A stretch of 62,539 nucleotides of DNA, counting the filler, from Chrysochromulina tobinii (lineage: Eukaryota): assembly GCA_001275005.1 (NCBI GenBank). It is 7 parts of 7 records of this genome, joined end to end, with 100 filler letters (N's around TTAATTAATTAA, not from the genome) between each part and the next. Parts side by side here need not be neighbours in the genome. Positions count along the whole stretch, not along the records: positions 9,741 to 19,372 come from JWZX01000955.1; 6 more parts are not named here. One strand, written 5' to 3'. The notes under the pieces were generated by a model. It was not told where the DNA came from, made no database searches, and worked only from the letters and a program-made list of their open reading frames with translations. Position 1 is the first letter of the stretch, and every line of letters starts with the position of its first letter. Shown here in pieces: positions 7,748 to 42,434 of the stretch. The translations under genes and the position numbers were made by a program.

Positions 7748-7999
7748 AGCAGATCGAACACGAACAGGAGTGCGTGCAGGGGGAGAGCACGCATGAGCTG
7801 CGCTACAGGTGTCAGGTCCGACGGACCGCAGGGCGGAGCCGGGACAGACGCCAGCCCTCAGGGTCCACTGCAGAGCGCGGAAGGCGGAACCGCGAGACCC
7901 GCTTAGAGGCCGATCAAGCTTTTCAAGTTACAAAGTATTCACACCAAACCCCCAAAGTCGCTTCGCAGGTGTGTGTGGCGACTTTGCTTGCGTGATCCG

Positions 8000-8566
8000 A
8001 TGCGCGCGCACCTTCTCCTGGCGCTCGTCGCGCTCGTTCGCGGCTCCGACCTGCATCGATACGTGCAGCAGGACGCTTTCGATACGCTGGAGAAGGAGCT
8101 CGTGTACCGGCCACCTAATGCGCTCAACGCGATCGAAACTGAGACTGGCCAGACGCCATTGATGATGGCGGTTCTGATGGGCAAGACCCAGACCGTGAAG
8201 CTGCTCCTCAAAGCAGGCGCGGATACCACCATCGGCGAGAAGGATGGGTACACGCCGTGCCACGGTGCAGCCTTTCAGGGTCGGCCTGAAGTCATGAAGA
8301 TGCTCCTCGAGCACGGACTGCCCTGCACGACTGATCGGCACAAGGATGGGTACACGCCGCTGCACCGCGCGTGCTGGGGACGCGCCGAGGGGCACACCGA
8401 AACCGTGCGTGTGCTGCTGAAGGCGGGCGCACCAGCCGACCAGATGAGCGACAAAGGCGAGCTGCCCGTTGACTTGACGCCCAACGCAAACACTAAGAAG
8501 CTCATCAAGCATCGACTGCAGAAGATCGCCAATGTCAAGATATCGATGGACAAGGACGAGATGTAG
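8000..8566 (+). CDS. Secretory-pathway ankyrin-repeat protein
   Basis: Signal peptide MRAHLLLALVALVRG. Three ankyrin repeats (GQTPLMMA, GYTPCHGA, GYTPLHRA). C-terminal KDEM, similar to KDEL. Confidence 0.85.
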   Translation: MRAHLLLALVALVRGSDLHRYVQQDAFDTLEKELVYRPPNALNAIETETGQTPLMMAVLMGKTQTVKLLLKAGADTTIGEKDGYTPCHGAAFQGRPEVMKMLLEHGLPCTTDRHKDGYTPLHRACWGRAEGHTETVRVLLKAGAPADQMSDKGELPVDLTPNANTKKLIKHRLQKIANVKISMDKDEM

Positions 8567-9216: not shown

Positions 9217-9640
9217 ATGCTGGAGCTCATCGACGCATTCACAAACGACCTGATCCGCGACCCGGTGCTCGCGGCCGATGGCCACGTCTACGATCGCTCC
9301 TCGCTCCTCAAGTACTTTGCCGCCCGCAAGTCCGAAGGATGGCCGATCGTCTCGCCTCAGGACCCGGAGCAGCCCATGCGAGAGGAGTTGGGCGAGGCGC
9401 CGGCCGACGTGGTTGCGGCGCTGGCGCAGCTGCGCGCGGACGGCGAGCTGATGAGAAGGGCGCGCCAGGCACGATCCGCCACCTTCAAGAGCCTCGAGGC
9501 CCTCAAGGTGGTGTTCGATGTGCTGGACCCCCTGTCGGAGCTGCTGGCTGCGACGCTGGAGGGTTGGAGGACGCCGGTGGTGATCGTGTTCGGCCAGGAG
9601 ACGAGCGGCAAGTCGTCGCTGCTCGAGCGGCTCGCGATGA
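9217..9640 (+). CDS. U-box fused to a dynamin-like GTPase (3'-truncated at contig end)
   Basis: U-box-like LIRDPVLAADGHVYDRSSL...SP, then PVVIVFGQETSGKSSLLERL, which matches the dynamin-family G1 context. Confidence 0.65.
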
Positions 9641-9740
9641 NNNNNNNNNNNNNNNNNNNNNNNNNNNNNNNNNNNNNNNNNNNNTTAATTAATTAANNNN
9701 NNNNNNNNNNNNNNNNNNNNNNNNNNNNNNNNNNNNNNNN
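9641..9740. other. Artificial contig linker (also at 19373-19472, 38645-38744, 42335-42434, 49898-49997, 56369-56468)
   Basis: Identical 100-bp spacer N44-TTAATTAATTAA-N44 with stops in all six frames. Confidence 0.97.
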
Positions 9741-12700
9741 GCCACCGCCGTGAGCTGCAGACCGCGGTGAGCACCAGCGCTGGCCTGACCAGCGCACTCG
9801 CCAACACCGCCGTCAGCCGCATCGTCCTTGCCTCCGGCACCTACAACCTCATCGCCGAGCTCAGCATCACCAGGAGCGTCATCCTGGAGGCGGCGGCGGG
9901 AGCCACAGTCACCCTGAACGCACAAGCGAGCTTCTCGAGTCCGCGCCGTGTGCTGAACATCAACCCGGGCTCGTCGGGCGTCGTGCAGCTGATCGGGCTC
10001 GGCATCACAGGAGGCTACATCAACTGGGTGCGCGCTCATTTTCAAAAGTTCCCATCGCCCCGATGGGAGACTCACGTTTGTGATCTGCTGGTTGTTTGCA
10101 GGGCGGCGGTGTCTATGTCAGGGGAGGCACAGTGACCATCTCATCGTGCACCATCAGTGGGAACACAGCATCTGTACATCATATGCGTGTTCATGTTCAA
10201 AAGTTCCAATGGCCCCGATGGGAAATTTGCTGACGAGATTGCCTCGACTCTCGCTTGCACAACTGCGAACGCTTCGTTCAACTACAGAGGGTACGTTCCA
10301 CAGAGACCTTGACCAACTTCCCATCGCCCCGATGGGAAAATTGCTGACGCGCTTGCCTCGACTCACGCTTGAACAACTGTGCGGCCGACGCTTCGGTCAA
10401 CTATAGCAAGTACGTGCCACAGCTGAATTTTTCCCATCGCCCCCATGGGAGACTCACGTTTTGCTCGTTGTTTGCAGGGTGGCGGTGTCTATGTCGGGGG
10501 TGGCTCAGTGACCATTGATTCGTGTACCATCAGTGGGAACACAGCAATTGTGCGAGCTCATGTTCAAAAGTTCCCATCGCCCCAATGGGAAGATTGCTGA
10601 CGCGCTTGCCTCGACTCTCGCTTGCACAACTGCGGCCAACGCTCCTGTCAACTACAGGGGGTGCGTGCCACAACTGAAATTTTCCCCATCGTCCTCACGT
10701 GAGACTCACGTTTGCTCGTTGTTTACAGGGTGGCGGTGCCTTTGTCGAGGGTGGCACGGTGACCTTCTCATCGTGCACTATCAGTGGAAACACAGCATTC
10801 CCGGTGCGCGCTCACGCTCAAATTTCCCCATCGCCCCGATGGGAAGATGGCTGACATGCCCAAATCGACTCTCATCTAACAGGGATATGTACGTGCCAGA
10901 CACGCCTGCAAACTTCCCATCGCCCCGATGGGAAAGTTGCTGACGCGCTTGCCCCGACTCACGCTTGCACAACTGCAAACGCTTCGGTCAACTACAGGGG
11001 GTACGTGCCACAGAGACCTTCCCATCGCCCCGATGGGAAAACTGCTGACGCGCTTGCCTCGACTCTCGCTTGCACAACTGCGGCCAACGCTCCTGTCAAC
11101 TACAGGAGGTGCGTGCCGCAACTGAAATTTTCCCATCGTCCTCACGTGAGACTCACGTTTGCTCGTTGTTTTTACAGGGTGGCGGTGTCTTTGTCGAGGG
11201 TGGCACGGTGACCTTCTCATCGTGCACTATAAGTGGGAACAGAGCTAACGATGTGCGTGCTCCTGTTCAAAATTTCCCATCGCTCCTCATAGGAAACTCA
11301 CGTTTTGCTCAATGTTTGCAGGGAGGCGGTGTCCTTGTCGATTCCGGTAGGGTCACGATAACGTCTTCCTCGATCTACGGGAACACAGCGGAAGTGCGTG
11401 CTCATCTTCAAAAGTTCCCATCGCCCCTGATGGGAGAATCACTGACGTGCTTGCACCGACTCACGCTTGCACAACTGCGAACACTCCGGCCAACTACAGT
11501 TTGTACGTGCCACAGATACCTTGCAAACTTCCCATCGCCCCGATGGGAGAATTGCTGACGCGCTTGCCTCGACTCACGCTTGCACAACTGCGAACGCTTC
11601 GGTCAACTACAGTATGTATGTGCCGCATTCCTTGAAAAGTTCCCATCGCCCCGATGGGAAAATGCCTTGTTGACATGTCCATTTTCGATTCTCATCTTTT
11701 ATGATGGGTGCTGCCTCGAACTACCAGGATGGAGTACGTGCTAGCCTGAAACTTCAAAAGTTCCCATCGCCCCGATGGGAAAATTGCTGACGCGCTTTTG
11801 CTTTGATGCTCGCTTGCACAACTAACGCTTCGGTCAATTACAGCAAGTACGTGCCGCAGAGACATTCCAAAGTTCACATCGCCCCAATGGGAGATTTGCT
11901 GACACGCTTGCTTTGATTCTCGCTTTCACAACTGCTAACGACGCTTCGGTCAACTACAGGGAGTACGTGCCGCAGAGACCTTGAACACTTCCCAACGCCC
12001 CGATGGGAAAATGCCTTGCTGACGCGTCTATTTCGATTCGATTCTCATCTTTTATGATGGGTGCTGCCTCGAGCTACCAGTCTAGAGTACGTGCCCTCTG
12101 CGCCTGAAACTTCAAACGTTCCCAGTGCCCCAATGGGATTTTCACATGTTTTGCACTTGTGCGTGCAGGGCGGTGGTGTCTTCGTCAGAAGTGGCATGGT
12201 GACCATCTCTTCGTCCACCATCAGTGGCAACACAGCTCTCAGCGCTGTGCACGTATGTGCAAGCCTTGCCTGCAAATCCCCATCCCTGGGAAAATGGCTG
12301 ATGTGCTTGCCTCGACTCTCGCTTACACAACTGCGGCCGATGCTCCGGTCAACTAATGGATGTACGTGCCGCAGAGACTCAATATTTCCCATCGCCCTGA
12401 TGGGAAAATGGCTGACACCCTTGCCTCGACTCTCGCTTGCACAACCGTGGCCGACGCTTTGGTCACCTACAGGATGTACGTGCAGCAGAGACTGAAAACT
12501 TCCCATCGCCTTGCTTTTGTGACCTGCTTTGTGCCCTCTCGTTCCCCTCTTCAGACCCAGGGGGGCAATGTCTATGTCCAAAAAGGCGCCTCTGTCGTCT
12601 GCTCCTCGGGAACGACCCTCACCGGCGTCACTTGGGAGGGGGGCTCAATAGAAGCAGACCCGACTTGCGAACCAACGGGCGTCATCGTCGGCGTCGTCGT

Positions 12701-13535
12701 CGGCGTGATCCTCGCCCTCGCCCTCGCCCTGGTCATCCTGCACCGCCGTCGCCGCGATATGCGCCGCAAGGAGGCCCAAAAGCCACCGGCGTGGTGGAAT
12801 CCGCACAAACCCGCCTTCTACCTTTTGCCCCGCGCGGCCGTGCTGGGCGCCAGGACCAAGCAGCTGGGGCGTATGCAAGAGCTGCGCGACTCGCTGCAGC
12901 TCGTGAAGCTGGCCATCGACCTGAACGAAGCCTTCCAGGGCGAGGGGCTGATCGAGAACATCCTCATCGTCAGCCACAGGTGGGAGGACTCGATGACGCC
13001 CGACGAGACCGGCGCGCAGCTGGCGGCGCTCCGGGCGCACCTGAGGGCCCACCCCGAGCTCCACTACGTCTGGTTCGACTACGCGTGCATGCCGCAACGT
13101 TCGGGCTCGGCACACCGCTCGGGCACGGACGGCCGCACGAAAGCGGAGAAGGCCGAGTTCAACCTCATGCTCGGCGCAATCGCCGACCTCTACCTGACGG
13201 CCAAGGTGTTGATCCTGCTCGACACCATGTACCGCTCGCGGTTCTGGACGACAATGGAGGGCTGGTGCGCGATGCAGAAGGTGACATCGCAGGGCGTGCG
13301 CCCGGCAAGGGAGGGCGAGTCACGTGTCACCGTCGTGTGCATCCACAACGCGACGCAGGACGACAAACAGGCCCTGCTGAAGATGTCGACCAAGACGCCG
13401 ACGGAGATCTCCAACTTCCTCGCGTCGCCCGACGTGGCGGTGACCAACAAGAAGGACAAGACGACGATGCTGCCGATCGTCGGCAAGACCGACGAGCACG
13501 TCCGGGAGATGATGAGCGGCATGCACAGCTGCTGA
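9741..13535 (+). CDS. Micro-exon-rich receptor-like gene: Pmp-like beta-helix ectodomain, TM helix, HET-like domain (5'-truncated)
   Basis: Large exons at <9741-10027, 10102-10173, 10478-10549, 10729-10803, 11178-11252, 11322-11393, 12169-12246/12252 and 12561-13535. The six middle exons each encode one GGGV(Y/F)VxGGxVTIxSxTIxGNTA repeat, all phase 0. Fourteen 3/6-nt micro-exon slots lie between them. TM GVIVGVVVGVILALALALVIL-HRRRR. HET-like motifs IVSHRW, YVWFDYACMPQ, DLYLTAKV, YRSRFWTTME. Confidence 0.75.
10028..12560 (+). repeat. Array of about 21 homologous intron cassettes (about 70-125 bp), each with a TTCCCATCGCCCCGATGGGAA hairpin or a degenerate copy
   Basis: Repeated consensus GT(A/G)CGTGC...AAGTTCCCATCGCCCCGATGGGAAAATTGCTGACGCGCTTGCCTCGACTC(T/A)CGCTTGCACAACTGCG..CGCTTCGGTCAACTACAG. 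Confidence 0.9.
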
Positions 13536-14085
13536 ACCTGAGGGGTTTCGCTTTGGCTTTAGTCATACTTTTGGAAGAGGGGAGGGGGAAGCGAGGAGGT
13601 GGGAGCGTTGGGGCGCCATCTTGGCGTCCAGAGGCAGATCATTCCGAACAGCAACTCAGGTGAGGAACTATGCTCCATCCTCCATGGAGGGGTGGTCCGG
13701 TCCCTTGAGAAATGTGATTGGAAAGTGTCGTGTGATTTACATGTGCCCGCATGCTGAGGCGCGCGCGGGGGGGCGGGGGGCGGGGGGCGGGTCCTGACTC
13801 GCTGTCTTGGCTGTTGCCATGCCTGCTCGCCCGCGCGGAGAGAGGACCGAGTGGTGCATGATGATTGTCGCGCTTGAGGAGGCAGCCGCGAGGACGAGTG
13901 AGCACGAGGTCGGTTGCGTGTGCGATCATTGATGTGAGCCCGCCGGCGGACCCGAGCGCCGAGGAGCGGAAGACCCGCCGGAACGCGGAAGCGAACGGGA
14001 CGCGAAGGTGGAAGTCGTGCTGTGTAGGGTCTGCACCTCTGGTCTACGATGCGGTCGACGATGCGGTGACACGCGCGGTGTGGCG

Positions 14086-14137
14086 TGGTCTACTATTTTT
14101 TATGTTTATAAGGCGGCCCAACCCTACACCTGTTTGG
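14086..14137 (-). repeat. Dispersed ~52-bp repeat, reverse complement of the unit tandemly repeated at 50081-50306
   Basis: The reverse complement CCAAACAGGTGTAGGGTTGGGCCGCCTTATAAACATAAAAAATAGTAGACCA closely matches 50093-50142. Confidence 0.85.
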
Positions 14138-14244
14138 TGTATCCGACGTAATGTGGGGTGCGGTGCGTCGTTGCGCGCGCATTTCGCATTTGGTTTGGGG
14201 CGCTTCGTCTCTCACCCGCGGGTCCAAGGGGTACCCCAAGTGAA

Positions 14245-14590
14245 GGTCAAAAAACAAAATCTCGCGCCCCACTATGTTGAAACACCATAGGGTAGACGTC
14301 GGTAAGCACCTGAGTGTTGAAAGCAACCCTCCCCCAAGGTCAAATTCTCGCGCCCCACTATGTTGAAACACTACCCCAAGGTCAACATAGTGGGGCGCGA
14401 GATTTTACCTACGCTAGGTCATAATCTCGCGCCCCACTATGTTGAAACTGTACCCTTCTACCCTATGGTGTTTCAACATACTAGATTACACTTAGTGGGG
14501 CGGCGCGAGACTTTGACCTTGGGGGAGGGTTTCTACAACACTCTGGTAATTAGAAATTCCCTATCTTGGTGAGTTTCAACATAGTGGCAG
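14245..14590. repeat. Foldback-like cluster of direct and inverted 23-bp CTCGCGCCCCACTATGTTGAAAC copies (probable non-autonomous TE remnant)
   Basis: Forward copies at 14261, 14347 and 14426. Inverted or partial copies near 14381, 14470, 14493 and 14573. Confidence 0.7.
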
Positions 14591-14811
14591 GCCTCTGCGC
14601 CTCTGGCATGAAAAACCCTAAGCAGGCGGTTTTAATGTAATTATATGTAGTTATGTCATGTACCCACATCGGCCAATCACCACCCTCACGTGTTCGCACA
14701 TCGGCGCCTCCATACAACAATCACAGCACACCATGCAACACACGCCCCGACGGGCCCGCTTCGGCCGCCGGCCGCGCACGCTATATAGGTAGCTGTGATG
14801 CCCCGGGCGAC

Positions 14812-16722
14812 TCAGACGGCGGTGTCGACGCGTTTGCTCAGCTTGCTAATTGGCGCCCCTTGCGGCGGCCCGTCGCCAAAGTACGAGGAGTATGCACCTC
14901 GCTCAACCGCTCGCTCGAGGCGTGACGTGGCCATGTCGTCGTCGGGCGTGCCGTACTGAGTGCCGTACGAAGACTTGGAAGTGAGGCGCCCATCCTTACG
15001 CGATGGGTTGCCTGGGATGAGGGTCGAGTCGTACACAGGCACGTGTAACTGCTCTGCATGTTCGTGGGGCGGCTCGTTCGTGAAGTGCTCGGGCGGGTCA
15101 CGAAGCAGTAGGATGAATTTCATGCGACCCGAGATGCAGCAGTCGAGAAGCACGCAGCAGCCGAGGAACATGGAGAGGCCGACGAGGACCGCAAGCAGTA
15201 GGCAGAGCAAAAGCGCAATGTTGTACAGGCGCGGCGTGGAACGATTGCAGTCGTCTCCAGCGAAGGTGAAGTAGCACAGCATGATGCCCCATGCGACAAA
15301 GAGGATCGCGAGGATCGCAAACGAGACCGCCTTTGCCTGCAGCCTGCCGCGCCACATGGCCACTTCGTAGTGTGAGCGTGGCGGTGGCTGCGGGACGCTA
15401 AAGAGGTCGACAATGAAGCCGAAGAGGGTGAGGACGAGGCCGGTGATCACGAAGACGAGCAGCAGCCAGTGAATGGGCGAGGGGGCCCCCGCCACTAGCC
15501 AGCCCCACACGTCGGACTGGAACGTCGTCCCTGGGTCGAAGGCGGGGCACACGATCTCCCACGAGCTCCACAGCTGCGGCGGATGGAGGTGAGGGGGTGA
15601 GGGGGTGAGAGACACGAGAGGGAGGAAGGGGGAGGGAGGGAGTGGAGTGAAGAGAGGGTGAAGTGTAGGGAGGGTGGAGTGTAGGGAGGGTGGAGTGTAG
15701 GGAGGGTGGAGCGTAGGGAGGGTGAGGTGTAGGGAGTGGCTCACCTCGAAGCCCATGAAGAGGAAGAACCAGAGCAGCGCCGCGGTGTTGACGAACAGGG
15801 CGACGAGCGAGCGCCCAGGCACAATGCACCCGGGCGCCATGAGCAGCTGCAGTAGCCCGACGCAGCACCATCCGAAGCGCGTGTTGCTTCCGGCCAGCGG
15901 GTTGACATAGTGCTTCTTGCCTTCGTCCTGGCCCCGTGGCGGGAGCTTGCGTGCCACCTGCACGGCACCAGCTATGTTGACGGGCAGCTCGCGCTGACTA
16001 CTTTCCTGCCCTTGCCCATCTATCCTGCCCTCGTCATCTATCCTGCCCTTGCCGCCGCCCTTGCCCAAGTCGGCTCCAATCCGGCTGTCGGAGAGCTCGG
16101 TATACTCCACGTCGACGCCCACTGTCTCAACGCATCCGATCATGCACAGTGCGATCGGCGCGCACAGGCAGCGCGAGAGGAGTCGCACGAGCGGCACCGA
16201 GAGGAAGAGCGTGGCGAGGATGGCGAAGAAGAAGGCGGCGGCGACGCTCCATCGATAAAGAAGCGGCGCCGTCTCAGAACAGCTGTAGCGCGTCTTGACA
16301 GTCTCGTAGATCAGGAAGCTGCCAGCAACGCTCAGCAGTAGGAAGAAGACGATGAGCAGGAAGAGGTTGGTGTACGACGGCAGCGACGAGAGCCGTGCGT
16401 AGTGAAGCCACTCGCGGAAGAGCAAATAGACGAAGAGCAGGCCGATGCTGGCGTAAATGACAAGAAATAGCGGGAGCAGCGGAGGGTTTGTGCCATCGCA
16501 TGGCGTGTTCCAGTTCAGGATGCCGACGACCAGCATCGCGATGTGGAAAATCAGCAGCACGAAGATGGCCGTCGCTGCATGCATGCGTCGCCCGAGCCGC
16601 GCGTGCGGTGCGAGCTCCATGCGCACCGGATGCATGATCGGCGTCGCCTCATCCGGGTCGATGGGTCCTCCGCCGCCCGTGCGGAAGCGAACCATGCCAC
16701 GCCCAGGGCTTGGACAATTCAT
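14812..16722 (-). CDS. Multi-pass membrane protein with two similar TM modules; in-frame intron 15574-15744
   Basis: About 8 hydrophobic helices. Repeated C..T.P.LY motif (CSETAPLLY, CNRSTPRLY). GT-AG intron filled with a CCCTACACTCCA minisatellite. Confidence 0.75.
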   Translation of the reverse strand: MNCPSPGRGMVRFRTGGGGPIDPDEATPIMHPVRMELAPHARLGRRMHAATAIFVLLIFHIAMLVVGILNWNTPCDGTNPPLLPLFLVIYASIGLLFVYLLFREWLHYARLSSLPSYTNLFLLIVFFLLLSVAGSFLIYETVKTRYSCSETAPLLYRWSVAAAFFFAILATLFLSVPLVRLLSRCLCAPIALCMIGCVETVGVDVEYTELSDSRIGADLGKGGGKGRIDDEGRIDGQGQESSQRELPVNIAGAVQVARKLPPRGQDEGKKHYVNPLAGSNTRFGWCCVGLLQLLMAPGCIVPGRSLVALFVNTAALLWFFLFMGFEVSHSLHLTLPTLHPPYTPPSLHSTLPTLHPLFTPLPPSPFLPLVSLTPSPPHLHPPQLWSSWEIVCPAFDPGTTFQSDVWGWLVAGAPSPIHWLLLVFVITGLVLTLFGFIVDLFSVPQPPPRSHYEVAMWRGRLQAKAVSFAILAILFVAWGIMLCYFTFAGDDCNRSTPRLYNIALLLCLLLAVLVGLSMFLGCCVLLDCCISGRMKFILLLRDPPEHFTNEPPHEHAEQLHVPVYDSTLIPGNPSRKDGRLTSKSSYGTQYGTPDDDMATSRLERAVERGAYSSYFGDGPPQGAPISKLSKRVDTAV

Positions 16723-16799
16723 CCATCCTGTGTTTCCTTTTTAGGAACTGGAAGCCAACTTTCATGTACTATGCCTGCATGCCAATATGACCGCTTCCA

Positions 16800-18148
16800 G
16801 TAGGTCCGGGAAATCGGTGCAAACCCTGTTCAGGGTCGGGGACCCCTGATCAGCCTCCCCGTGCGTGGCGACCAACCGTGCCCCAATATATTGATATTTC
16901 AAATGAGACCCCTGATCGGAGGCCCAATCCAGAGCGCGTTCAAGGCGGAGAGGAAGCCGGCAAGAGGGGCTGATCAGGCCTGATCAGGGTCGCACTGGTT
17001 GGGGGTCTCAAAGGGCCCCAGCCTCTGTAGGGGCTAATCAGGCCTGATCAGGGTCCGACTGGTTGGGGGTCCCATAGGGTCCCAGCCTCTGTAGGGGCTG
17101 ATCAGGCCTGATCAGGGTCGCACTGGTTGGGGGTCCCATAGGGTCCCGCAGCCTCTGTAGGGTCTGATCAGGCCTGATCAGGGTCGCACTGGTTGGGGGT
17201 CTCATAGGGCCCCAGCCTCTGTACAGCCTCTGTAGGGGCTGATCAGGCCTGATCAGGGTCGCACTGGTTGGGGGTCCCATAGCATCACCCAGAAGACCCT
17301 ATGGGACCGCGTTACTGGCCCAGCATAACGACGCCTTACAGGTGGAGCGGTATGACTAACCACGAGAAGATTAGGAAGCACTTGCACAGGCCCAACATGA
17401 GTTTGGGTATGTGTTAGGAAAACGTACGCGTTACTGGCCCCGCATAACGACGCCTTACAGGTGGAGCGGTATGACTAACCACGAGCTATTACGGAACCAA
17501 GCCACAGGCGTAGCCAACCGCCCACCACAGTGTGGCTTAGGCGGGACGCACTTGCACAGGCCCAGCACAACCCAAGCTGATCAGGCCTGATCAGCCCCTA
17601 CAGTGGCAGGGACCCTATGGGACCCCCAAACATGTGCGACCCTGATCAGGCCTGATCAGCCCCTACAGAGGCAGGGACCCTATGGGACCCCCAACCAGTT
17701 CGACCCTGATCAGGCCTGATCAGCCCCTACCGAGGCTGGGGCCCTATGGGACCCCCAACCAGTGCGACCCTGATCGGGCCTGATCAGCCCCTACAGAGGC
17801 TGGGACCCTTTGAGACCCCCAACCAGTGCGACCCTGATCAGGCCTGATCAGCCCCTACCGAGGCTGGGACCCTCCAGATCCCTGTCCCTCTGCCCGCGAC
17901 GCCTGATCAGGCCTGATCAGCCCCTCCAGAGGCTGGGACCCTCCATCCCTGTCCCTCTGCCCGCGACCGGCGTGCGGCGACCCTGATCAGGCCTGATCAG
18001 CCCCTCCTGACCGGCCTCTCCTATCAAAATCGGGTAGTTTTGCACCTCATGCGCCGGGCACCTTGAAAATCAGCTCTTTAGACCTTTCGACCCTGATCAG
18101 GGGTCACCGACCCTGAACAGGGTTTGCACCGATTTCCCGGATCCTCTC
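16800..18148. mobile_element. Non-autonomous Mutator-like (MULE)/foldback element
   Basis: 49-bp TIR core (16805-16853 vs 18093-18141, 1 mismatch). G...C termini. 9-bp target-site duplication CCGCTTCCA at 16791-16799 and 18149-18157. Inverted arrays of ~60-bp subterminal repeats. No transposase. Confidence 0.85.
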
Positions 18149-18205
18149 CCGCTTCCAAATAAATGCTCTAGTGCGTCTAACCGTTTTTTGCTTTGTCGCC
18201 TCACT

Positions 18206-19228
18206 TCATCTTGCCCTTGCCGGGCTCGGCACCGGCGCGGGCGCCACCGTCGGCCCGCGGTTGGCAATGAGCGAGAGGAAGCAATTGTAGCCGATCTGGA
18301 TGGTGTTGATGTACAGCACGCGCTGCGAGGACGGGATGATACGGAAGTTGATCGCGTGTGCCAGCGGCCACACCATCCAACTACCGGTCACCTGCCGAGC
18401 GCACGCACGCGGCCGAACGGAAGCAACGCGCAGCGCCGTTAGGTCGGGGCGCTGTGTCGGGCAAGGCAACCTGGTAGAACGGGCACCGTCGAGGCGAGGA
18501 CGACGAGCGGGTGGCGGTGGCGGTGTGAGAAGGGGCCCTCGGGGCACTGGCACGCCATCCACCTGGGTCACTAGCTCGTCCTTCATCTTGTCGAAGACGT
18601 TGCCGAGGCCCTTGAGCTCCGCCGCGGCAATGTAGCTAAAGAACATCATGCCAAAGATCGGGGCCCAGAACACCTGGTCGACGAGCACCTTCGCAAAGAC
18701 CACCTGAGCCGATGTGCCCGGGAACTTGCCGTCCAGCCATCCGTAGAAAACGTGGGAGGAGGTGCCATGTACGAGGAAGCCAAAGGAGGCGAGGCGGAGG
18801 AGCCGCAGAAAGTCGAATGAGTCGACTTTCTGGATGACTTTCTGGGCGAGAATGTCGCCGAGCGCGAAGCCGGTCAACGAGGTGAGGGCCTTCATGAGCA
18901 GTGGCGTCTCCTCAAGCAGCTGTTCATAGCGCTTCCACATTTGCATCATAGGCGTGCTGTCGCCCTCGTCGTCGCTTGAGCCTGCCGTCGATCCCATGCC
19001 GCCATCGCCGCCGTCGGCGCCGCGGATGCCGCCCGCTCGCGAGCCGCCCTTCCTGAACATCGGGAACTGGGGCATCGTCTTGCGGACCGCCAGAATCCAC
19101 GAGCGGCCGATGAGCATCTCCGGCGCAGCGGTGCGGCTAGCGGCTACCGGCACGGCCGCGCGCATCGGACAAGCCGGCGCGACCACGAGCGCCGACGCCG
19201 TCGACGCGAGCGCCGCCCAAACGAGCAT
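18206..19228 (-). CDS. Mpv17/PMP22 family protein with bipartite (probably plastid) presequence; intron 18392-18562
   Basis: Motifs PLLMKALTS...GDILAQ, KVLVDQVFWAP, WPLAHAINFRIIPSSQRVLYIN. N-terminal signal peptide ending ASAL plus an Ala/Arg-rich transit region. Confidence 0.85.
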   Translation of the reverse strand: MLVWAALASTASALVVAPACPMRAAVPVAASRTAAPEMLIGRSWILAVRKTMPQFPMFRKGGSRAGGIRGADGGDGGMGSTAGSSDDEGDSTPMMQMWKRYEQLLEETPLLMKALTSLTGFALGDILAQKVIQKVDSFDFLRLLRLASFGFLVHGTSSHVFYGWLDGKFPGTSAQVVFAKVLVDQVFWAPIFGMMFFSYIAAAELKGLGNVFDKMKDELVTQVDGVPVPRGPLLTPPPPPARRPRLDGARSTRLPCPTQRPDLTALRVASVRPRACARQVTGSWMVWPLAHAINFRIIPSSQRVLYINTIQIGYNCFLSLIANRGPTVAPAPVPSPARAR

Positions 19229-20279
19229 GGATGATTGCATGGATGATTGCATTCCCTCTGTGCCGCTTGACCCCAACGGTTATAAAGCGGCCGTGAACCA
19301 CCGCGTGAAGAGACAGACAGCGGAGCCATCAGGAGCCCGGCCAGGGGGGAAGGGGAGATGCGGGGAGATGTCNNNNNNNNNNNNNNNNNNNNNNNNNNNN
19401 NNNNNNNNNNNNNNNNTTAATTAATTAANNNNNNNNNNNNNNNNNNNNNNNNNNNNNNNNNNNNNNNNNNNNGCCCCGGGGTGTGTATGCCGCTCGAGTA
19501 GCGCGTCAGCGGGGCATGGGGATCCCCGGTGATCATGTAAATAGGGTGGAGACGTATCAGATACAGACACCTCTCGCGGCGCGGCGAGGTTTCATTACTA
19601 CATTTAACGAAGTCGTAACACGCTCATATTTTCTATAGATTCTTTGTACCCTTTTGCCTTTGGCTTTGCGGCACGTGGCGGCACGCGCGACGAGCACGGT
19701 ACAACCGCACGCGTAATCAGAGAGTTACCTCCACCCGTCCTCGCTCCTCCGCTCACTCTCGGCCGCACCCCACGGACCCCGGATGGCATCTTGAACTTCC
19801 AACTTGATGCGCACCAGGGGTCGATGCACGTGATCGTGCGGGCTGCCGGGCGCACCAGAGAGAGAGACACTCACTCAGCCGTCCATGTAAACTTTTAAGT
19901 AATTGTAAAGTCACTCCGGTTTTAAAGTCATCAGCGATGCAAATAGCGAGATCGGTACGACGCGGCGGCCGAACGGACGCCGAACCAGGAAGAGTCTACC
20001 AGTCTCTGCAGCGAGTCGCACGTGAACCGCGCTGAAACCCCCGACGGGCCCTCTCTATACGATACACCGCCCAGCGCCAACGTGAACGCGTCATCGTGAC
20101 TCGCTCGATCACACGCCGACCGTGTCCCCGTGCCCAGCAATTATGCTGTGATTTGATCCCAGCCCCGTAGCCGGGACGCCTGTCACAGTTCACCCAATAC
20201 TCGCGGCATACACCGGAAGCGAGGCTTCCTCGCGCCAAGACAGAGGTCTACTCAGGCCAGTGTCAGGAACGTCGGGCTC

Positions 20280-20955
20280 TCAGGCGTAGATCTTGGCATC
20301 GACCGCCCTCGTGTAGTTGTTCATGTCTTCGTAGCCGAACCAGCGGGCAAGCTCCTCGGCGGCGCCTTCGGTCGAGTCGGAGCCGTCGATGCAGTTGCGC
20401 CCGCGATCCGCGGCGTACACAGCGCGGACCTCGTCGACCATCGCCCGACCGGTCTTGATGACGTCCTTGCCCTCCCAGGCCATGGCGACGATCGGGCCGG
20501 AGGAGAAGTAGGCGCAGAGGCCGGGGTAGAAGGGCAGCTTAGCGAGGCCCGCGTAGTTGTTCTGGGCCTGCTCAAGCGTGGGCGTCAGCATCTTGAGGCC
20601 GACGAGCCTGAAAGAATGGGAGAATGACAGAGAATCAGCGTTGGTTTTTCATGAGCGTGGCTTCTCGAGTGCGTCATGCCACTCACTTGTATCCCTTGCT
20701 CTCAAACTTGGAGATGACGGCACCGACGACGCCACGCTCGACGCCGTCAGGCTTGACAAGGATGAGCGTGCGCTCACGTTTGGTTCCCGGCTCGCCAGCA
20801 AGAGCAGTGGCAGGAGCAGGCTCGCACTGCATGGGCGCGGCCGCGTAAGCGGCGAGCGAACTCACGGTGCCAACGGCGGCGAAGGCGAGCGGCGAGCGGG
20901 CCACGGCACGCGCGACGGGCGCGGCCAGAGCACGGCGAAAGACCGAAGAGAACAT
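20280..20955 (-). CDS. Nucleoside diphosphate kinase-like protein with mitochondrial-type presequence; intron 20608-20686; catalytic His replaced by Asp
   Basis: Motifs [43 protein letters not shown]. Confidence 0.85.
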
Positions 20956-21212
20956 CGAGTAAGAGCGGAGTCGGCGGAGTTGTCGGCGATGTGGCGCAGG
21001 CGTTTCATCAAAACATAGGTACCGGTACGAACATACAGGAAACAGTCGTCTATGGGACAGTCGTCGTCCTAGAGATTAAGATCTAGACAGACTTCGCCGC
21101 CTTTTATCAAAATCGATGGATGGCCGCCTGCTCATCGCTATCTCCAAATGCACCCCGAAGACGGCCGATCTCTTCATCCAACCCCGGAGATCAAACGAGT
21201 GCCCTCGCCCCG

Positions 21213-21992
21213 TCACTGCACGTGATCCCAGGCAGATGGGGGACAGCCGATGGGGATCACATCGATCGGCCCCGTCCACGCCTCAGCCCCCGGCTGATCA
21301 AAGCCCTTCTTGCGAGCCACGAACGTGACCGTGCGGCATGCCTTGACTGCCGCACCGAGGGGCAGCCCGCTGTCTGTGTCCATCCCCGACGGCAGGTCGA
21401 CTGCTACGACGGGCTTCTCTGCTCCATTCAGTGCCTCGATGAAGGCGATGCCTTCGGGCCGTAAATGGGCGCTGAGGCCCGTGCCGTAAATGGCGTCGAC
21501 CAGGAGCGATGCATCGCTCCACCCCGCCAACAGGGAAGCTAGGGCGGCACCGTCGGCAACATCCACAATCTCGGCCATGCGCGAACTCTCGAGCACGGAA
21601 AGGTTGATCCCAGCATCTGTCTCGCGCTTGCATGTTGAACGGTCGCCACAGTAAGCCACACGAGCCACATATCCTCGAAGCACGAGATGCCTTGCGAGAA
21701 CAAAGCCATCTCCACCATTGTTGCCTTTGCCAGTGATGATGCCGACGACGGCGCCAGGGCCCGCATCGCGCGCAGCTAGCTCATCGCAGACGACGTCGGT
21801 GAGACCCAGCGCAGCATTTTCCATGAGCACAACGCCTGGAAGACCCATCGCGATGGCCTTCTCGTCGACTTGGCGCACTTCCTCGCGGGAGAGAGAGCGA
21901 AGTGGCATCGCAAACCGTCCACTTTGTCCACTGCGAAGCACGCTGCCCATTACAGCCGCCGCCGATGCGAGCACGGTAGCTCCGGCCGCCAT
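21213..21992 (-). CDS. NAXE: NAD(P)HX epimerase (YjeF_N / NAXE)
   Basis: Motifs LMENAA, GKGNNGGDG, LVDAIYGTG, VAVDLPSG, TVTF...K.G. Confidence 0.9.
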   Translation of the reverse strand: MAAGATVLASAAAVMGSVLRSGQSGRFAMPLRSLSREEVRQVDEKAIAMGLPGVVLMENAALGLTDVVCDELAARDAGPGAVVGIITGKGNNGGDGFVLARHLVLRGYVARVAYCGDRSTCKRETDAGINLSVLESSRMAEIVDVADGAALASLLAGWSDASLLVDAIYGTGLSAHLRPEGIAFIEALNGAEKPVVAVDLPSGMDTDSGLPLGAAVKACRTVTFVARKKGFDQPGAEAWTGPIDVIPIGCPPSAWDHVQ

Positions 21993-22386
21993 CGCGAGGA
22001 CGTGTGAATTTGAGTACTCATTTATAAACATTGGCTGTGAATTTCTGGGTATTGGGGGTGTCCAGGGGTCCCCGAGCTAGTGTTCATCGCATCCGTACGC
22101 CGGTCCGGTGTCTTGGGTGTCGACTTATAAACATTGGCTGTGAATTGGCTGTTGATTTTAACGATTTAGTTAATTTACAAAAGCTGTTTTAGTATTGCGC
22201 AAGGCATGACGGTTGTGGGTTGACGCCTCCCGCCTGACCCTGAGCGGGCTGAGCCCCGCCGGCACCCGGGAGCAGCACACAGTGTGAGCACACGTGTCAA
22301 GCCTGGCTGGTGGCTCGTCGCTCGATTCCGCTCGAGACGCCGTCTGGCACCAGTGCGTGGCACGCGAGGACCGGACCGGACGCATT

Positions 22387-25300
22387 GGCTCTAGCTCAGG
22401 TCAGGGGCCTCAAGCTGGTGTGTAAACTGAGGTCTGGGCACAGTGGTCTGGGGGGAGCCGGGGTCTGGGGCGGGAGCCCCAGCGGGGTGCGGGGCAGCGC
22501 CCCGCATTAGAGATTTTTTTGAATTTAGGTCTTCTTTCAGCGAAATTCTCTACTCAAAACTCATCCCGTCCACTGTGGTATTTACATGTACATCTAACGG
22601 CAGCACCAGTCCAAAATGAGACGCTCACTGCCTGTTGAGATCTCCCACAGCTGGTCTGGGGGCTCCGCACGCTGCTCCTGCACGAGCCGAACCATGCCCG
22701 TCAACGCTCCCTGCCAATGTTGGCGTGCTGCCCCGGCAGCAGCGCGAGGCTCCCCACGGCGCACAATGTTCAGCGGGACTCCACCTACGGGTGGCAGCAA
22801 CATCATCTCGACTTTGTCTCCAATGGCACGCAGCTCAGTTGAATTGAAAGTGTACGTATGGCCTGTTAGTTGGCCACGAGCGTCACGGGCCCCAGCATCA
22901 ACGGCCCACAACTTGAAGATGCGGCGCTCATCGCCCCCACTGACGTCCCGCTCAAACCATTCGACAGCAATCTGCAGATCGCCTACATCATAACGCTCCC
23001 GTCTGTCCACGCCTTCCACATAGTCAACTGCCTTGTACTCTTTCACAATGCAAAGAGCACGGCCGATCCAGTACTGATCAGGGTCCTGCTCGCCGCGATT
23101 CTGCACCGCAACCCAAATCGGTTGGTTGCTCCTCGACAAAATGCGTCTTCAACTGCTCACGCAGCTCTCGTGCCTTTGCTCGTGTTCGGTTTCGGCTGTT
23201 GGCAACGCCGGCGGCATCAGCGGCGGTCAATGCTCGTCTCTTCCCAGGCAAGCGACTCCGACTCGCACTCCGAGCAGCAATAGTTTGAGTCCATCGTACC
23301 CTCGCCTGGCGCCGAGGCGTGCATGCATGACGTGCACCAACAAGCAAACTTGCGCTGCAGGATAACGCCCTCACGAACACCCATGAAGAGGAACGTCTTC
23401 TTCATGCCCGGCATCTTGTCGTACTCGTGGTCTGGCTTAGGCCTGATGATGTCGTTCGTTGGGGTGTAGAGCACGATGACCTGATTGATGGTCTTGCCCT
23501 GATGGGACTCGATGAACGCATCGGTATCGAATCTCATCTTCAAATGGGTGGCCACGTCCTCGGGCGACAGAATGGTACCCTTCTCGAGCAGGATGGTCTT
23601 CATTCCCGGTCGATGGTCCGTGATGTCCTCGCGCACTGTCCGCTTGAGCCATGCGCCGATGCCATCCCACACGCCCTTGCCGTGCCCGGGAGGGCCAAAT
23701 TCCCAGAAGACACGAAAGCTGAGAGGGGCACCCGCATTGTGACCGTCGCCGACTACTAAGCCGCTAGCCCACGACGCGAGGCGCTCACGCAGCTTCGAGA
23801 AGAAGTGCATCGTCTTGCTTGACTTGAAGTGGCTGGGGGCGTTATCCGAGTGCATGTGCCACGCAAAGAATTTCTCCTTGCCCGTCTTCACGTAGTGCTC
23901 CTCCAGGTAGGCAAACGTCTTCTCGAGAAAGGTCTGAGCAGCGTGCGAGTCGTGCGTCTTGTCATCCGAAACGTGGGCAAAGACTTTGGTCTGCAGCTTG
24001 CGGTGGCGAAGGTAGCGGCGCTCAATGAACTCAAGCTCAGGCTCGCTGTCCCCATGAAGCCCGTGGCGACAGACGCCGTATTTCATTTGCTCCGGATCGG
24101 TCGCTGCAGCAACATCAGCAGCTGAGGGCAGCGCGACAACCTGCGCCCAATACGATCCCTTTGCAGGCTCAGTCGCACCTGGCGCTGACGCGATTGCCGG
24201 CTCCACAGTGACTGCAGCGTGAAGGGGAAGGTCGCCACTGCGTTTGACCCATGCATCCGTCTCGAGCCACGACACCACCTGAACAAAGAGAGTGAAGCTC
24301 ATCGGCGACCAATGATCCGATTGGACAGAAACGCCTCCCGGGGGTGGGATGGTTCCATCCATCGCAAAGTCGACGTCAGACTGGACCCATCCCGGCCCAC
24401 GGTTGCGCTCAAACTGCGCCGCCATGTCCTTTTGCCGCATGATAGTGAAGCGATGATGTGGGAACTTGCGCATCGCTGACGCCTCGAAGTCGTCGAGAAA
24501 TTCAACAACTGTGCCGCGTCGCTGCTCGTAGCTGGGCTGACTCGGCTCGCCCGCCTGCCCGTTTTTCGACGAGCGGATACGCAGCCACTTGAACTCGGCC
24601 TGGAACTCGATCGGTGCGCTCGCCTTGATATTGCCTTGACCATCGATCACATGCTTGCGAAGGCCCTTGGACCAGAGCTTGTCAAAGCCGCAGCGCGCGC
24701 ACTTGCCGTTGATGCAGTCTTCAGAGCCGGCGCCGTCGAGTGCCCCTTTACAGAGAGCAAACTTGACCATCTCGGACTTTGACTGCAGTGCGCAAAATTC
24801 GAGCAGCTTCGTCAGCCCTGCCTTGCCTTCCCACTCGTGCACGTCTGAGTCGTCCTCATCCCCATCAGCAAGGGCGTCAGCGTCGGCGGTGGGCGAGTTG
24901 AGCAACGGGCCAAAGTGCTTCTCGAGGGAGTGGTGGACGGTCATGTAGTTCTTGAAGTTCGTGCAGTGCTTGCACTCGCACGTGCGCTCCTTGGTGCGCC
25001 GCACGTACCACGGCCGCAGCCTCTTGAAGAGGGAGAAGGAGATGCGGTGGCTCGAGTAGCGCAGCAGGTAGAGCGAGTACAGCGCGGCATACTTCGAGTA
25101 GATGTACAGCGCCTGCGCACACTCGTACATCCCAATCCCAACGCGCCGGCGCACGCGATCGCGCTGCGACGGGCTACGAGCGCCCTCGGCATTGAACAGC
25201 TCCTCGACCATCGGACGCGCCTTCTCGGCCTTCTCATCTTTGCGCGTCTCACGAGCGGCTGGGCGCAGCGACGCAGGCGCCCGCTCAAGGCGGGCGCTAT

Positions 25301-26197
25301 CCTTGGGGAATGCTGTCGACGTGCGCTGAAGCCCCGGCGCTACCTGCCACTCACCGCGTGCCTTGTAGATGCACGTGTACGAGCGTGTCAGCTTGACACC
25401 CGACACATTGAACTCGAGCACGTATCCGCCTCGTAGTCGATTTCGAGAACGGTACACGGCCGCCCACGCGACGTGGCCGCATCGCCTGGCTTGAGGGGCC
25501 CGTGGCATTCAAGCGTGTCATCAAAGGCGGCGCGTCGAGTGATGGCCTGCTGCAGCACGCGTGGCCTCTTCTCGTGCGTCGCCTTGACGTAGCGCGAGCC
25601 TCGCTGCACACCGAGCCGATCAGCCACACTCTTGATCATACCGTCCTGATCACCTTTCTCCTTCCGTTCAGGGGCAACCGCGCCGAGGATAACGTGCAAG
25701 TCGATGCGCATGGCCTCGGTCAAGCAGCGCTTGTAAACGTTAATGGCCGCTCGAAGGCGGTCGACGATGTAGCCATCGACCTTCGCCTTCTCAATCTCCT
25801 CTGCCGAGTGCTTGAGGTTGAGGTGCTCTGCCACCTCATCCACAACGCCAAACTCGACGGCCATCTCCGCCAGCATGAGAGCAATTCGGTACTTTGACCC
25901 CTGCGCCCAATCCTGCAAGCAGCCAATCAGCCCACGCCTCCTGTGATGCCTCCAGCCGCGTTTCTCGTCGCCGCGAGGGGGTCGCGTTTTGTCTGTATTG
26001 CGCTCGTCGATCTTCACGGCGCGCCTCTTCTCCAACTCCGTCTCGTGCTTGCGCCAGCGAGAGAGCGGCCAATCGCGCCAGTTCTCATCATTATCGGCGT
26101 CTTCGGCGCCCTCGGCGTCGGCGGCGCCCTCGGCCGCGGCGCCCTCGGCGGCGGCGCCCTCGGCGGCGGCGCCCTCAGCACGTACATTGCCCTCGGC

Positions 26198-26228
<31 letters not shown>

Positions 26229-27476
26229 CGTACATTGTCTGCGGGGGCGCCCTCGGCTGCGGTCGCCCCCGCAAATGCCGTCTTCTGCTTTTTGTGCGAC
26301 TTGAGCTTGATTTGCGCAGCTTCCGCTCTGATCTTTGATTGTTGAGCCATGGCTTTGGCAGCGTCGAGCGCGGACTTCGCTTCCTGGTGCGCAAGCTGGG
26401 CCTTTTTCTCACCCTCGTGTGCATTGTCGACGGCCCTGCGAGCATCTTCAACAGCTTTAGCATCGATTGCGGCCTGGCGCACAAGGGCTTGCTGCCGCGC
26501 TGCAGCCGCCTTCATGCGATCAAATGCCGTTGCTGCCTCCACCGCCTCTGCTGGCGCTGCCTCTGGCATCTCTGTGTCGCCACTGAGCTGCTTTGCTCGC
26601 CGCTCGGCCACGCGCTCGACGGCCTTGTGGTGGTGCACATGGTCCTCACACATATGCTCCTCCATGATCTTCATGCGCAGCCCACGCAGCGCCTCGAGGT
26701 GCGTGGGCTTCAGTCCGGTCTCATCGCAGTTGACCTTCACACGCTTGAGTTGACCACTCGCCCAACAGCACCCTACAAGGGCCTGAACCTTGTTGAGATT
26801 CGTGACGACATCGTGGTAGAAAAACGAGACCGCGCCGATGACGACGGGCAGCGCCTCGATGAGCCGCTTCTCCTCTTCGACCTGCTGAAGCCAAATCGAT
26901 GCTTCCTCATCGATCAACTCGTCGACGTCGTTCAGCTCCTGCTCCGCTGGCATCTGCTCCATGAAGCGAATGACTTCGTCGGCCTCGCCGCCGTATAAAA
27001 ACGGCACGCCCAGCGCCAGGATGAAGATCAATGTCATCATGGAGAACGACCCTCCAAGTGTCTCAGCAGAGACCAAATGACCCACCAAGCCTTGTATCCT
27101 TAAGCTGCTTCCATTCATGTCCTCAACATCGGCAACTAAGCCAGTCGATCTCGATCGGGCTGCCGATGATGTGCGTGGACCTCTGGTGCCATCTCCGCGC
27201 GTTCGCGTGCCTTTATGCCCTCGCATGACCCTGAGACGAGGTGCTGAGACGCGACGTCCATGCTTTCCTCCACTGCGCACGGGAGTCTGACCTGATCACC
27301 TGAATGACGAAAACAATTAACTCGGGGGTTTGCAGCCCTTCGCCAGATCTTTGCAGCCCTTCGTTCTACGCGCGACGGCGATTCCAACGGTACAATCGCG
27401 GTCCCCTAACTCCCAGGGGTTCTCAGATTACACACTCGCCACTAGTGGCTGGCGGCCCCTGACCTGAGCTAGAGCC
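22387..27476 (-). mobile_element. 5.1-kb DDD-type DNA transposon (Sola2-like by motif inference)
   Basis: Perfect 23-bp TIRs GGCTCTAGCTCAGGTCAGGGGCC (22387-22409 and 27454-27476), flanked by ATT (or CATT) duplication. Internal transposase. Confidence 0.85.
22594..27118 (-). pseudogene. Frameshifted transposase (ORFs 25388-27280, 23217-25508, 23078-23380 and 22594-23139 are parts of one gene)
   Basis: Catalytic-like motifs DVDFAMD, HSDNAPSHFK and GHGKGVWDGIG. Cys clusters CECKHC, CINGKCARC, CWCTSC. Apparent frameshifts near 25420, 23225 and 23135. Confidence 0.75.
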
Positions 27477-27786
27477 ATTCCCGAGCCGACTCCGACTCTA
27501 CACCGCTACACATGCATAGGCCAACGCCTCGGCCACGCGCCGTACAGCCACTGCGTGCGCGCGCCGTCAGCCGATGAGCGTTCAGCGTTACCGACACTTT
27601 GAGCTTCGATCAGTACTCAATCAGTACCAAGCCGAGATCAGTACACCATGTGTTCAGCGATCAGTACACCGAAGCCTGCGCCGCCCCCGCCTGATGCAAA
27701 GTCGTCGTTTCCCACATGCTCTCACGGGGACGTATCACTGCACAACGACCCGAAACGGCGCGCCTCAGCCTGCGGATCACTACGCC

Positions 27787-28581
27787 TCAGCCTGTGATAA
27801 GCTTTTGGAAGCCCTTGCGCACGGCGCGTACGAATGCCGAGAAGTCGTTGCTCGCGTTCAGCGTGTGGACGAGCCCGGGTAGCTCGGTCAGCGTCGGTTC
27901 GCAAGACTGGACGACGTAGTGATCGCCCACCGTCACACACACCTCGAGGCAGAAGGCGCGCTCTGGGTCGGTAGGGTCGATGCACGTGAAGGTGAGGCGC
28001 AGTCGATCGTCGCCGACCTTGTCGAAGGCCAGACCGAGGCGGGCCTTGTACAGCGAGATGCCGCGGTCGAGCTCGCCAAGCTTATGCTCCATCCCTCGCT
28101 GTGCCTGCTCCAAGATCGCCTCCGACCTCGTGACGAGCGCACGCGACTGCGTGAGCTGCTGCTCGAGGCGCTGCGACTCAGGCGGCAGCACTTGCTCCTG
28201 CGCGTGCAGCTTGTCCAGATCGGCCTTGAGCGCCTCGACCTGCGCCCGCTCGTGGCGCCCCTGCTGCTGCACCACCTCCTCTTCCGCCGAGATCGCCTTC
28301 TGCTTCTCGCGCAGCTCCTCAACGTTCTCTGCGAGGCAAAGCAGCAACAGTGGGGGCCGCGCTCAATAGGGATGGAGCGCATCGAGGCCAGCTCCCGGGC
28401 AGCGGGCAGCACAGCTGCGAATCCACGACGCGCGGCACGTACCCTTGTCCGCCTGCAGCTGCGCCTTTGCGATGGTCGTGACCCTGTCGACCACAGCAAT
28501 CTGCTCGGTCACGTACTCCGAGAGCTGCTTGGAGATCTTCTCGACCTCGCCACGCAGCTCATCGTTCTGGCGGCTGATCAT
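27787..28581 (-). CDS. SPC25: Kinetochore Ndc80-complex subunit Spc25; intron 28329-28442
   Basis: Coiled coil followed by LGLAF...LRLTFTCIDPTDPERAF...YVVQSCEP...LNASNDFSAFVRAVRKGF. Confidence 0.85.
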
Positions 28582-29385: not shown

Positions 29386-29850
29386 TCACCACGCCCAGCA
29401 GCGACCCATGCGTCGGACGTACTCTTCCTGATTGGGTGCGTCGCTCACGCTCCTGGCAAGCTCACCCAGATGCTCTGCAAGAGCTCGCAGCAAGCCCCAC
29501 CTGTATGGATTCGCAGCCGTGAGCAGATATCGATCGCTGTTGGGCGTCAGGTACTTCGCAGCCGAGTGGCGACGGTTTTTTGGAGCGTCCCGTGGGACTG
29601 CTTCGAGAACTCTGGCGCCGAGAGCCACGAGACGTGCCGGGTCGCTCGTCTCCCAGTCGCGCCACCATGTATCAGCCGCCGCCCCGCTCATTCTCTCTCC
29701 CATCAGCTTGTGGCGGCTCATCGCGCCGATGTGCATGACGTACTCCTGGCTTTTATCGCGCATGAGATCGCATCCTCTCTCAAGGTACGCGTGATCTGGA
29801 GCGATCTTCTCGACCTCGCCACGCAGCTCATCGTTCTGGCGGCTGATCAT
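29386..29850 (-). pseudogene. Chimeric ORF: first 16 codons of Spc25 fused to unrelated sequence
   Basis: 29803-29947 duplicates 28534-28678 (145 bp, 1 mismatch). Confidence 0.55.
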
Positions 29851-42334: not shown

Positions 42335-42434
42335 NNNNNNNNNNNNNNNNNNNNNNNNNNNNNNNNNNNNNNNNNNNNTTAATTAATTAANNNNNNNNNN
42401 NNNNNNNNNNNNNNNNNNNNNNNNNNNNNNNNNN

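Follow-up and report, generated by a model that had tools for sequence, protein, structure and literature searches.

A gene on the plus strand of a Chrysochromulina tobinii DNA stretch (62,539 nt in full, hereafter the window, a chain of pieces with six 100-nt N linkers between them) very probably encodes a single-pass surface protein with a beta-helix ectodomain, one transmembrane (TM) helix and a cytoplasmic HET-like domain. We give a probability of roughly 0.58 to the reading that this gene is a member of a Chrysochromulina family of variable non-self receptors, in which each rung of the helix comes from its own exon and the loops come from exons of one or two codons; non-self sensing as a function is judged probable. 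The combination of loops assembled from one- and two-codon exons with a predicted TIR-like inner domain makes it likely that the protein is a sensor with high variability, directed at foreign cells or viruses. The features of the gene are listed below, where "pattern" denotes the acceptor-NNN-donor arrangement.

9741-10027, +: 3' part of exon 1, coding for the N-terminal beta-helix cap; 263 family proteins were found with this piece
10102-10173, +: rung exon 1, 72 nt; the family donor at 10183 reads AT, with an in-frame cryptic GT at 10174
10288-10290, +: microexon 1 (R), pattern; donor use agrees with record 9 of run X12
10407-10409, +: microexon 2 (Q), pattern
10478-10549, +: rung exon 2, 72 nt; record 10 of X12 ends within 2 nt of both borders
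10658-10660, +: microexon 3 (G), pattern; the 3' end of X12 record 10 weakly backs inclusion
10729-10803, +: rung exon 3, 75 nt
10883-10888, +: microexon 4 (GY)
10998-11000, +: microexon 5 (G), pattern
11106-11108, +: microexon 6 (E), pattern
11178-11252, +: rung exon 4, 75 nt
11322-11393, +: rung exon 5, 72 nt; follows rung 4 without an intervening microexon
11500-11502, +: microexon 7 (F), pattern
11613-11615, +: microexon 8 (Y), pattern
11728-11733, +: microexon 9 (DG)
11844-11846, +: microexon 10 (Q), pattern
11960-11962, +: microexon 11 (G), pattern
12081-12086, +: microexon 12 (SR)
12169-12252, +: rung exon 6, 84 nt; record 20 of run X13 has its exact borders with 0 differences
12359-12361, +: microexon 13 (D); damaged acceptor, TG at 12357-12358
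12473-12475, +: microexon 14 (D); X13 record 21 departs from the genome exactly at its donor
10028-12554, +: 21 related introns of 68-118 nt each, most with the central hairpin TTCCCATCGCCCCGATGGGAA
12555-13535, +: last exon, with two acceptors (12555 and 12561)
12555-12680, +: C-terminal beta-helix cap and short stalk, at the start of the last exon
12681-12770, +: TM helix (12681-12737, by hydropathy) and basic stop-transfer stretch
12807-13535, +: cytoplasmic HET-like domain, with a predicted TIR/deoxyribosyltransferase-type core at about 12942-13397
13257-13259, +: invariant Glu151 of the HET-like domain
13533-13535, +: stop codon

Related loci were collected by the acceptor-NNN-donor pattern among metagenome contigs (149 stretches representing 140 loci, 562 kb in total), a pattern-chosen set rather than a whole genome, in which some loci are possibly alleles. 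The gene begins before position 9741, where an N linker cuts its 5' end, and the locus L038, 100% identical to window 9741-19372, carries upstream of this part an ATG, a basic and then hydrophobic stretch, and the remainder of exon 1 (L038 8921-9092). With all microexons in, the spliced protein would comprise 627-646 aa, and no exon contains a frameshift or a stop.

An earlier note on this DNA had described six phase-0 rung exons of 72-84 nt, each encoding one GGG(V/A)xV...IxGNxA repeat, and all six were located (72, 72, 75, 75, 72 and 84 nt). Its layout of one repeat per exon held for the rung exons themselves, but the spaces between them are not single introns and hold 15 further introns around 14 microexons. 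The beta-helix ectodomain that it proposed was recovered by two routes. Firstly, rungs 4-5 (window 11172-11396) scored 29.5 bits with Pfam PF13229 (Beta_helix; cut-off 25.9), and paralogues matched this family at up to E 6e-23. Secondly, a fold model of the intron-free paralogue P0323 (28-sequence alignment), and not of the window's own spliced protein, consisted of regular three-strand coils with a pLDDT of 83, lower in the loops, and its top Foldseek matches in the PDB were all beta-helices (best E 3.6e-4), the closest folds being polysaccharide lyases, epimerases and adhesins. The intron-free paralogue P0319 also matched the chlamydial Pmp family PF02415 (E 4.8e-11).

A single TM helix followed by a basic stretch was found, as in the note, with a 19-aa hydropathy of 3.3 at 12681-12737 against 1.96 for the next best segment. 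The analogy to Toll-like receptors stood with regard to layout, as hydropathy alone indicates a signal-like stretch (in L038), a single TM helix and a cytoplasmic domain, but not with regard to the outer part, in which a beta-helix takes the place of a leucine-rich-repeat (LRR) ectodomain. The motifs SHRW, WFDYACMPQ, LYLTAKV and YRSRFWTTME all lie in the last exon. The HET consensus consists of the blocks S(H/Y)xW, WxD..C..Q and Y..A..V, and these occur in order in the inner domain, with S56, H57 and W59, W89, D91 and Q97, Y129 and V134, and R145, W147 and E151 invariant or near-invariant. The domain stays below the Pfam gathering score: PF06985 was not detected in the query inner domain at E<=1, and 5 of 93 homologues matched it at 14.7-20.3 bits (gathering score 22.5), the matches spanning HET positions 1-90 of 146.

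The predicted structure of the inner domain (pLDDT 96) gave a match list dominated by TIR/NDT. Glu151 was kept in all 93 homologues, within a Y.SRFWT..E motif on the predicted helix after the third core strand, and the catalytic Glu of TIR domains lies on helix C in the motif Y..S.WC..E; an hhalign alignment to one TIR sequence fell on the Y.SRFWT..E motif and was not significant. Sequence searches of the PDB with the inner domain and its profile gave nothing significant, Foldseek gave no match at E<=0.001 in the PDB and viral libraries, the ESM Atlas returned haptophyte and ascomycete clusters only, with no named match, and the query had no match in PADLOC or NCBIfam. The inner domain and the N-terminal cap matched C. 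tobinii proteins and JGI Chrpa1 models with up to 98% identity, and relatives of the inner domain form 1377 clusters. Some of these relatives are fused to TIR, Roc, GBP, TPR and ankyrin domains, which are typical partners in defence proteins. An NAD+-type activity of the inner domain is a tentative assignment, to which we give slightly less than even odds. In P0020, P0022, P0026, P0033 and P0065, a conserved helical module of about 70 aa precedes the HET-like domain; it presumably resembles a SAM domain, an oligomerising partner as in SARM1.

The 14 microexons of the window gene (11 of 3 nt and three of 6 nt) would add 17 residues if all were included, every one in loops. All 21 introns are phase 0 and 20 of them have GT..AG borders; the acceptor-NNN-donor pattern matched 11 times in the window, against 0.17 matches expected by chance. 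The inter-rung DNA is an array of units of about 110 nt, each with a GT donor, the hairpin, a branch-like CTGAC, about 50 nt without AG, the acceptor, a variable stretch of 3 or 6 bases and the donor that follows. The left half of an intron matches the type of its upstream exon, and the right half that of its downstream exon. On folding, the local hairpin alone was consistent (z -0.4 to -2.7), and an Rfam search of the introns gave no match. A CRISPR-like array was rejected as an explanation of the hairpin units, as their variable part is only 3-6 nt long and lies between AG and GT. We regard it as nearly certain that the microexons are spliced.

Direct evidence for splicing came from a paralogue, L001 (2490-5180), a beta-helix receptor kinase gene that has its signal region, cap and TM in common with the window gene. 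Over 1101 nt, L034 matched L001 with 0 mismatches, except that three introns, cut exactly at GT..AG, were absent; one of these separates two single-codon exons in L001. L034 is either RNA that was spliced in part or an allele that lost the introns precisely, and the junctions are confirmed in either case; an all-against-all search for further partly spliced contigs yielded only L034 among 19 candidate pairs. In RNA run X11, a 484-nt contig (depth 21.9) kept the first L001 introns and then joined the same two single codons to a 75-nt rung, and this joining reproduced its length, its start and all 30 shown letters. At a second X11 joint, a 6-nt insert equalled a microexon of L006 at 5 of 6 bases. 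It was therefore shown in a paralogue that single-codon exons enter the message.

The RNA runs contain unspliced introns too. The first introns of L001, one of whose microexons has a GC donor, were retained in abundant contigs (depth 22-46) of three runs, which suggests slow or detained splicing. A further rung-to-rung joint, 10173-12169, was observed in runs X1 and X11, with 15 inserted bases that equal four common microexon words in series; it occurs also in X1, a run guessed to be DNA, had no matching locus among the 140, and is possibly an intron-free gene copied from spliced message.

For the window gene, the RNA evidence consists of coordinates only, at a depth of 2-4 that was not taken as a rank of expression. 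Record 20 of X13 covers rung 6 from border to border and continues as though microexons 13 and 14 were skipped. Record 21 parts from the genome precisely where the donor of microexon 14 lies (depth 2 in both), and record 22 starts at the last exon's second acceptor. The X13 records show rung 6 and the last exon in spliced form. Record 10 of X12 fits inclusion of microexon 3, and its 5' end (10476) was unmatched by any canonical isoform tried. Optional inclusion is therefore hinted at in the window gene, and combinatorial inclusion is, by a small margin, favoured.

The same records bear on whether the window copy is in decay or serves as a reservoir, its main role being that of a cassette donor, which would be compatible with the family reading. 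Its donor at 10183 and its acceptor at 12357-12358 are dead, the intron with the dead donor (after rung 1) is retained in X12 record 9, and depth is only 2-4. However, the exons are free of lesions, an in-frame cryptic donor is present at 10174, spliced forms of rung 6 and the last exon occur, and the loci L022 and L062 differ at one site only within the window part of the gene. We consider such a reservoir role unlikely, and impairment of the window copy equally so.

The behaviour of the cassettes across the loci agrees with a family that is diversified in its loops. Short exons were called by blindly taking the first AG after the branch motif; there were 404 unique intervals, and the 195 unique short exons exclude 42 gaps, 67 intervals without a recognised branch motif, one without AG and 31 micro-type units with exons >40 nt. 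Frame was kept in 193 of the 195; as the pattern is biased towards 3 nt, a fair measure comes from the exons of other lengths, 44 of 46 (6, 9, 12, 15, 18, 21 and 24 nt, some encoding CxxC). The encoded residues are mostly G (61), Y (35), S (22), N (22) and D (20); one stop was met among the microexon codons, where a neighbouring AG yields a sense codon. Near-twins, with <=4 flank mismatches, were found for 101 of 143 unique 3-nt cassettes. Between twins, 0.53 of the codon positions mismatched, compared to 0.02-0.22 in held-out intron triplets, and the differences comprised 88 residue-changing and 0 silent ones.

Of 147 cassettes, 133 had their best match in a different locus. In the window gene, the Y and DG cassettes (microexons 8 and 9) share 99% identity with cassettes of L055 and L019. 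Identical rungs are repeated inside L019 and inside L027, the repeat exons being of the same phase and exchanged within and between genes. Of 225 donor-side intron halves, 211 agreed with the preceding exon type, and left and right halves were met in all four combinations, from which we infer that the moving unit is the hairpin-to-hairpin cassette around one exon. Being phase 0 and bounded by hairpins, such cassettes can be added, lost or swapped without a break of frame.

Several side observations concern these cassettes. Microexons of 15-24 nt encode CxxC or CxxxxC at L004 3632, L019 7824, L027 7387, L028 531 and L033 848 (oriented coordinates), several of them stemming from a new upstream AG in the cassette, and would give disulfide-closed loops. 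In L040, L053 and L069, an orphan cassette lies beside a microsatellite-like tract without a rung exon, and that of L069 is present twice as a 370-nt inverted repeat. At least two complete beta-helix modules (cap, rungs, cap) stand in tandem, with Pro-rich linkers between them, in L037/L042/L043, P0204, P0205 and P0304.

An origin of the arrays in selfish, introner-like introns, which would have split existing loops into single codons that are all included, so that splicing adds no diversity, draws on the fact that the 21 introns form one hairpin-bearing sequence family and that intron-free paralogues have loops of 2-14 residues with a similar make-up. Introners have been reported in a Chrysochromulina metagenome-assembled genome (10.1101/2022.06.06.494994). 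However, the intron family has no other copy in the 62.5-kb window, and 1459 of its 1479 matches in the 562 kb of loci lie <=900 nt from a rung motif; within this partial test (window and pattern-chosen loci), near-identical introns in unrelated genes or sites were not found. Moreover, every intron is phase 0 and confined to loops, and the tie between intron halves and exon types fits cassette duplication and not independent insertion. We regard this origin as very improbable.

The strong residue-changing variation could also be that of a variable coat, with loops diversified to evade binding by viruses or grazers and inner domains that are incidental and swapped by recombination. A very large family would suit it, as rung-exon depth in run X1 summed to 10,000-30,000 against about 85 for single pieces, by a rough measure. 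The inner domains are nevertheless intact, with conserved active-site-like residues, and a coat is accordingly held to be quite improbable, if slightly less so than selfish introns.

With regard to outputs, a census of C-terminal domains, as proposed earlier, showed that the same ectodomain family pairs with different ones. The seven distinct genes read past the TM helix end in a kinase (three), an ADP-ribosyltransferase (one, E 3e-19), a HET-like domain (one) or a short tail (two); the remaining paralogues end open in Pro/Ser stalks. Directly after the stop of L001 lies a remnant of the 3' end of the HET-like domain, followed by the same 3' flank, and this remnant is a footprint of domain replacement. 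The paralogue L041 10830-12692 has a TM helix and an intact-looking NAD:arginine ADP-ribosyltransferase domain.

These outputs speak against regarding the family as adhesins for prey or surface recognition, whose loops would serve feeding or attachment by binding diverse glycans of bacteria or particles, and whose inner domains would trigger uptake, not defence. Such a role would suit the mixotrophy of Chrysochromulina, the nearest folds of the ectodomain, the Chlam_PMP repeat matches in paralogues, and the long Pro/Ser stalks or short tails of many paralogues. It sits poorly with kinase, ADP-ribosyltransferase and TIR-type outputs and with the defence-type fusions of the inner-domain relatives, and we consider it improbable, although less so than the coat.

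Under the preferred reading of a variable non-self receptor, the phase-0 exons, each in its hairpin-to-hairpin intron cassette, would provide the exchangeable units, and single-codon exons, as spliced in the paralogue, would supply the loops. Variation would concentrate in the codon, which varies more than any other part of its cassette, and transfer between genes would occur, the closest relatives of cassettes lying mostly in other genes. Optional inclusion may give many loop variants per gene, up to an upper bound of 2^14 = 16,384 if all microexons were independent. The loops, rich in G, Y, S, N and D, may form the binding surface; binding would cluster the inner domain, so that NAD+ or a related nucleotide would be cleaved via Glu151, and in paralogues the same kind of input would go to a kinase or an ADP-ribosyltransferase. 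Once the outer domain was bound, the predicted TIR-type inner domain would signal or kill. A full anticipatory system, in which >100 surface beta-helix genes with loops from optional single-codon exons, reshuffled cassettes and kinase, ADP-ribosyltransferase or TIR-type killing outputs would give clonal cells differing repertoires, and in which virus contact would lead to signal or death, is an unlikely extension.

The surroundings of the gene were also inspected. The six linkers (window 9641-9740, 19373-19472, 38645-38744, 42335-42434, 49898-49997 and 56369-56468) are identical, each with 44 N on either side of 12 bases that hold stops in every frame. The DNA left of the first linker is absent from L038, and this linker, at least, joins pieces that are non-adjacent in L038, L022 and L062. 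At 9217-9640 (+) lies a truncated, linker-cut ORF with a U-box domain (E 3e-5) and the start of a dynamin-like GTPase; its fusion with the receptor gene was ruled out, as L038 shows that it is not the gene's neighbour. Further left are an ankyrin-repeat ORF (7991-8566) and, at the window start, an Armadillo-like repeat ORF with a 129-nt period (1-666). On the right, 14251-14537 holds clustered, MITE-like direct and inverted repeats of 25-40 nt, and 16805-18141 a fold-back element resembling a non-autonomous transposon: its ends are inverted arms of 49 nt, inside which a 64-nt unit with a palindromic core recurs in inverted arrays.

Toll-like receptors and plant receptor kinases combine a repeat solenoid outside, a single TM helix and a signalling domain inside. 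The window gene shares this plan, but has a beta-helix and not LRRs, keeps its diversity in exon cassettes, and belongs to an ectodomain family with three output types. With the chlamydial Pmp proteins it shares the GGx(I/V) and xxN repeat motifs; unlike them, it has a TM helix (other tails occur in the family) in place of an autotransporter barrel, and its variation is eukaryotic and exon-based. The motif order and predicted alpha/beta core resemble those of fungal HET (PF06985)/TIR domains, whereas the domain here scores below the Pfam cut-off and is C-terminal and membrane-anchored, fungal HET being N-terminal on NLR proteins.

HET homologues in Haptophyceae and a remote likeness of HET to TIR have been noted (PMC4986451), and the enzymatic activity of HET has been called unestablished (PMC10197012). 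The logic has precedent in candidate immune receptors (PMC4986451, PMC10197012, PMC3341825). In truffles (Tuber), the NACHT-ankyrin genes named nank are diversified by codon-sized microexons (PMC4986451, PMC10197012, PMC3689799). They form an expanded family of candidate non-self receptors, and their repeat-type sensor domain contains tens of 3-nt exons. Such arrays, spliced into a repeat sensor domain, were found here; the NACHT-ankyrin architecture was not, the window gene being without such domains. The Tuber proteins are fungal cytosolic NLRs with ankyrin repeats and reported alternative splicing, whereas the family here belongs to a unicellular haptophyte and combines a beta-helix outside the cell with a TM helix and exchangeable inner domains, its alternative splicing being weakly shown. 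The Ectocarpus ROCO-LRR and NB-ARC-TPR genes, proposed immune receptors, likewise encode each repeat in its own exon (72 nt), shuffle exons within and between genes and show diversifying selection (PMC3341825). They differ in their LRR/TPR repeats, in showing no microexon layer in the parts covered and in LRR-kinases without shuffling (PMC3341825), and here the loop owns its separate cassettes.

Literature searches, whose coverage lay outside most subscription papers and bioRxiv supplements, found no published report of this receptor family. Among database proteins, none was convincing as the spliced product of an intron-bearing locus, and viral contigs contained neither the cassette pattern nor the inner domain. 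The public gene models P0208, P0305 and P0214 translate through the cassette introns, and the family is therefore invisible in current annotation. Recognition of viruses and bacteria by protists has been described as a largely open question (10.64898/2026.10.11.758280), and the family offers a large, concrete and testable set of candidate receptors in a culturable freshwater alga. A codon-sized exon device, so far reported for one fungal NLR family, would here have been reached independently on an unrelated scaffold and stacked on repeat shuffling of the Ectocarpus type. The family would also be a natural test bed for how the spliceosome handles serial 3-nt exons, and for whether HET-like domains are NAD+-consuming enzymes.
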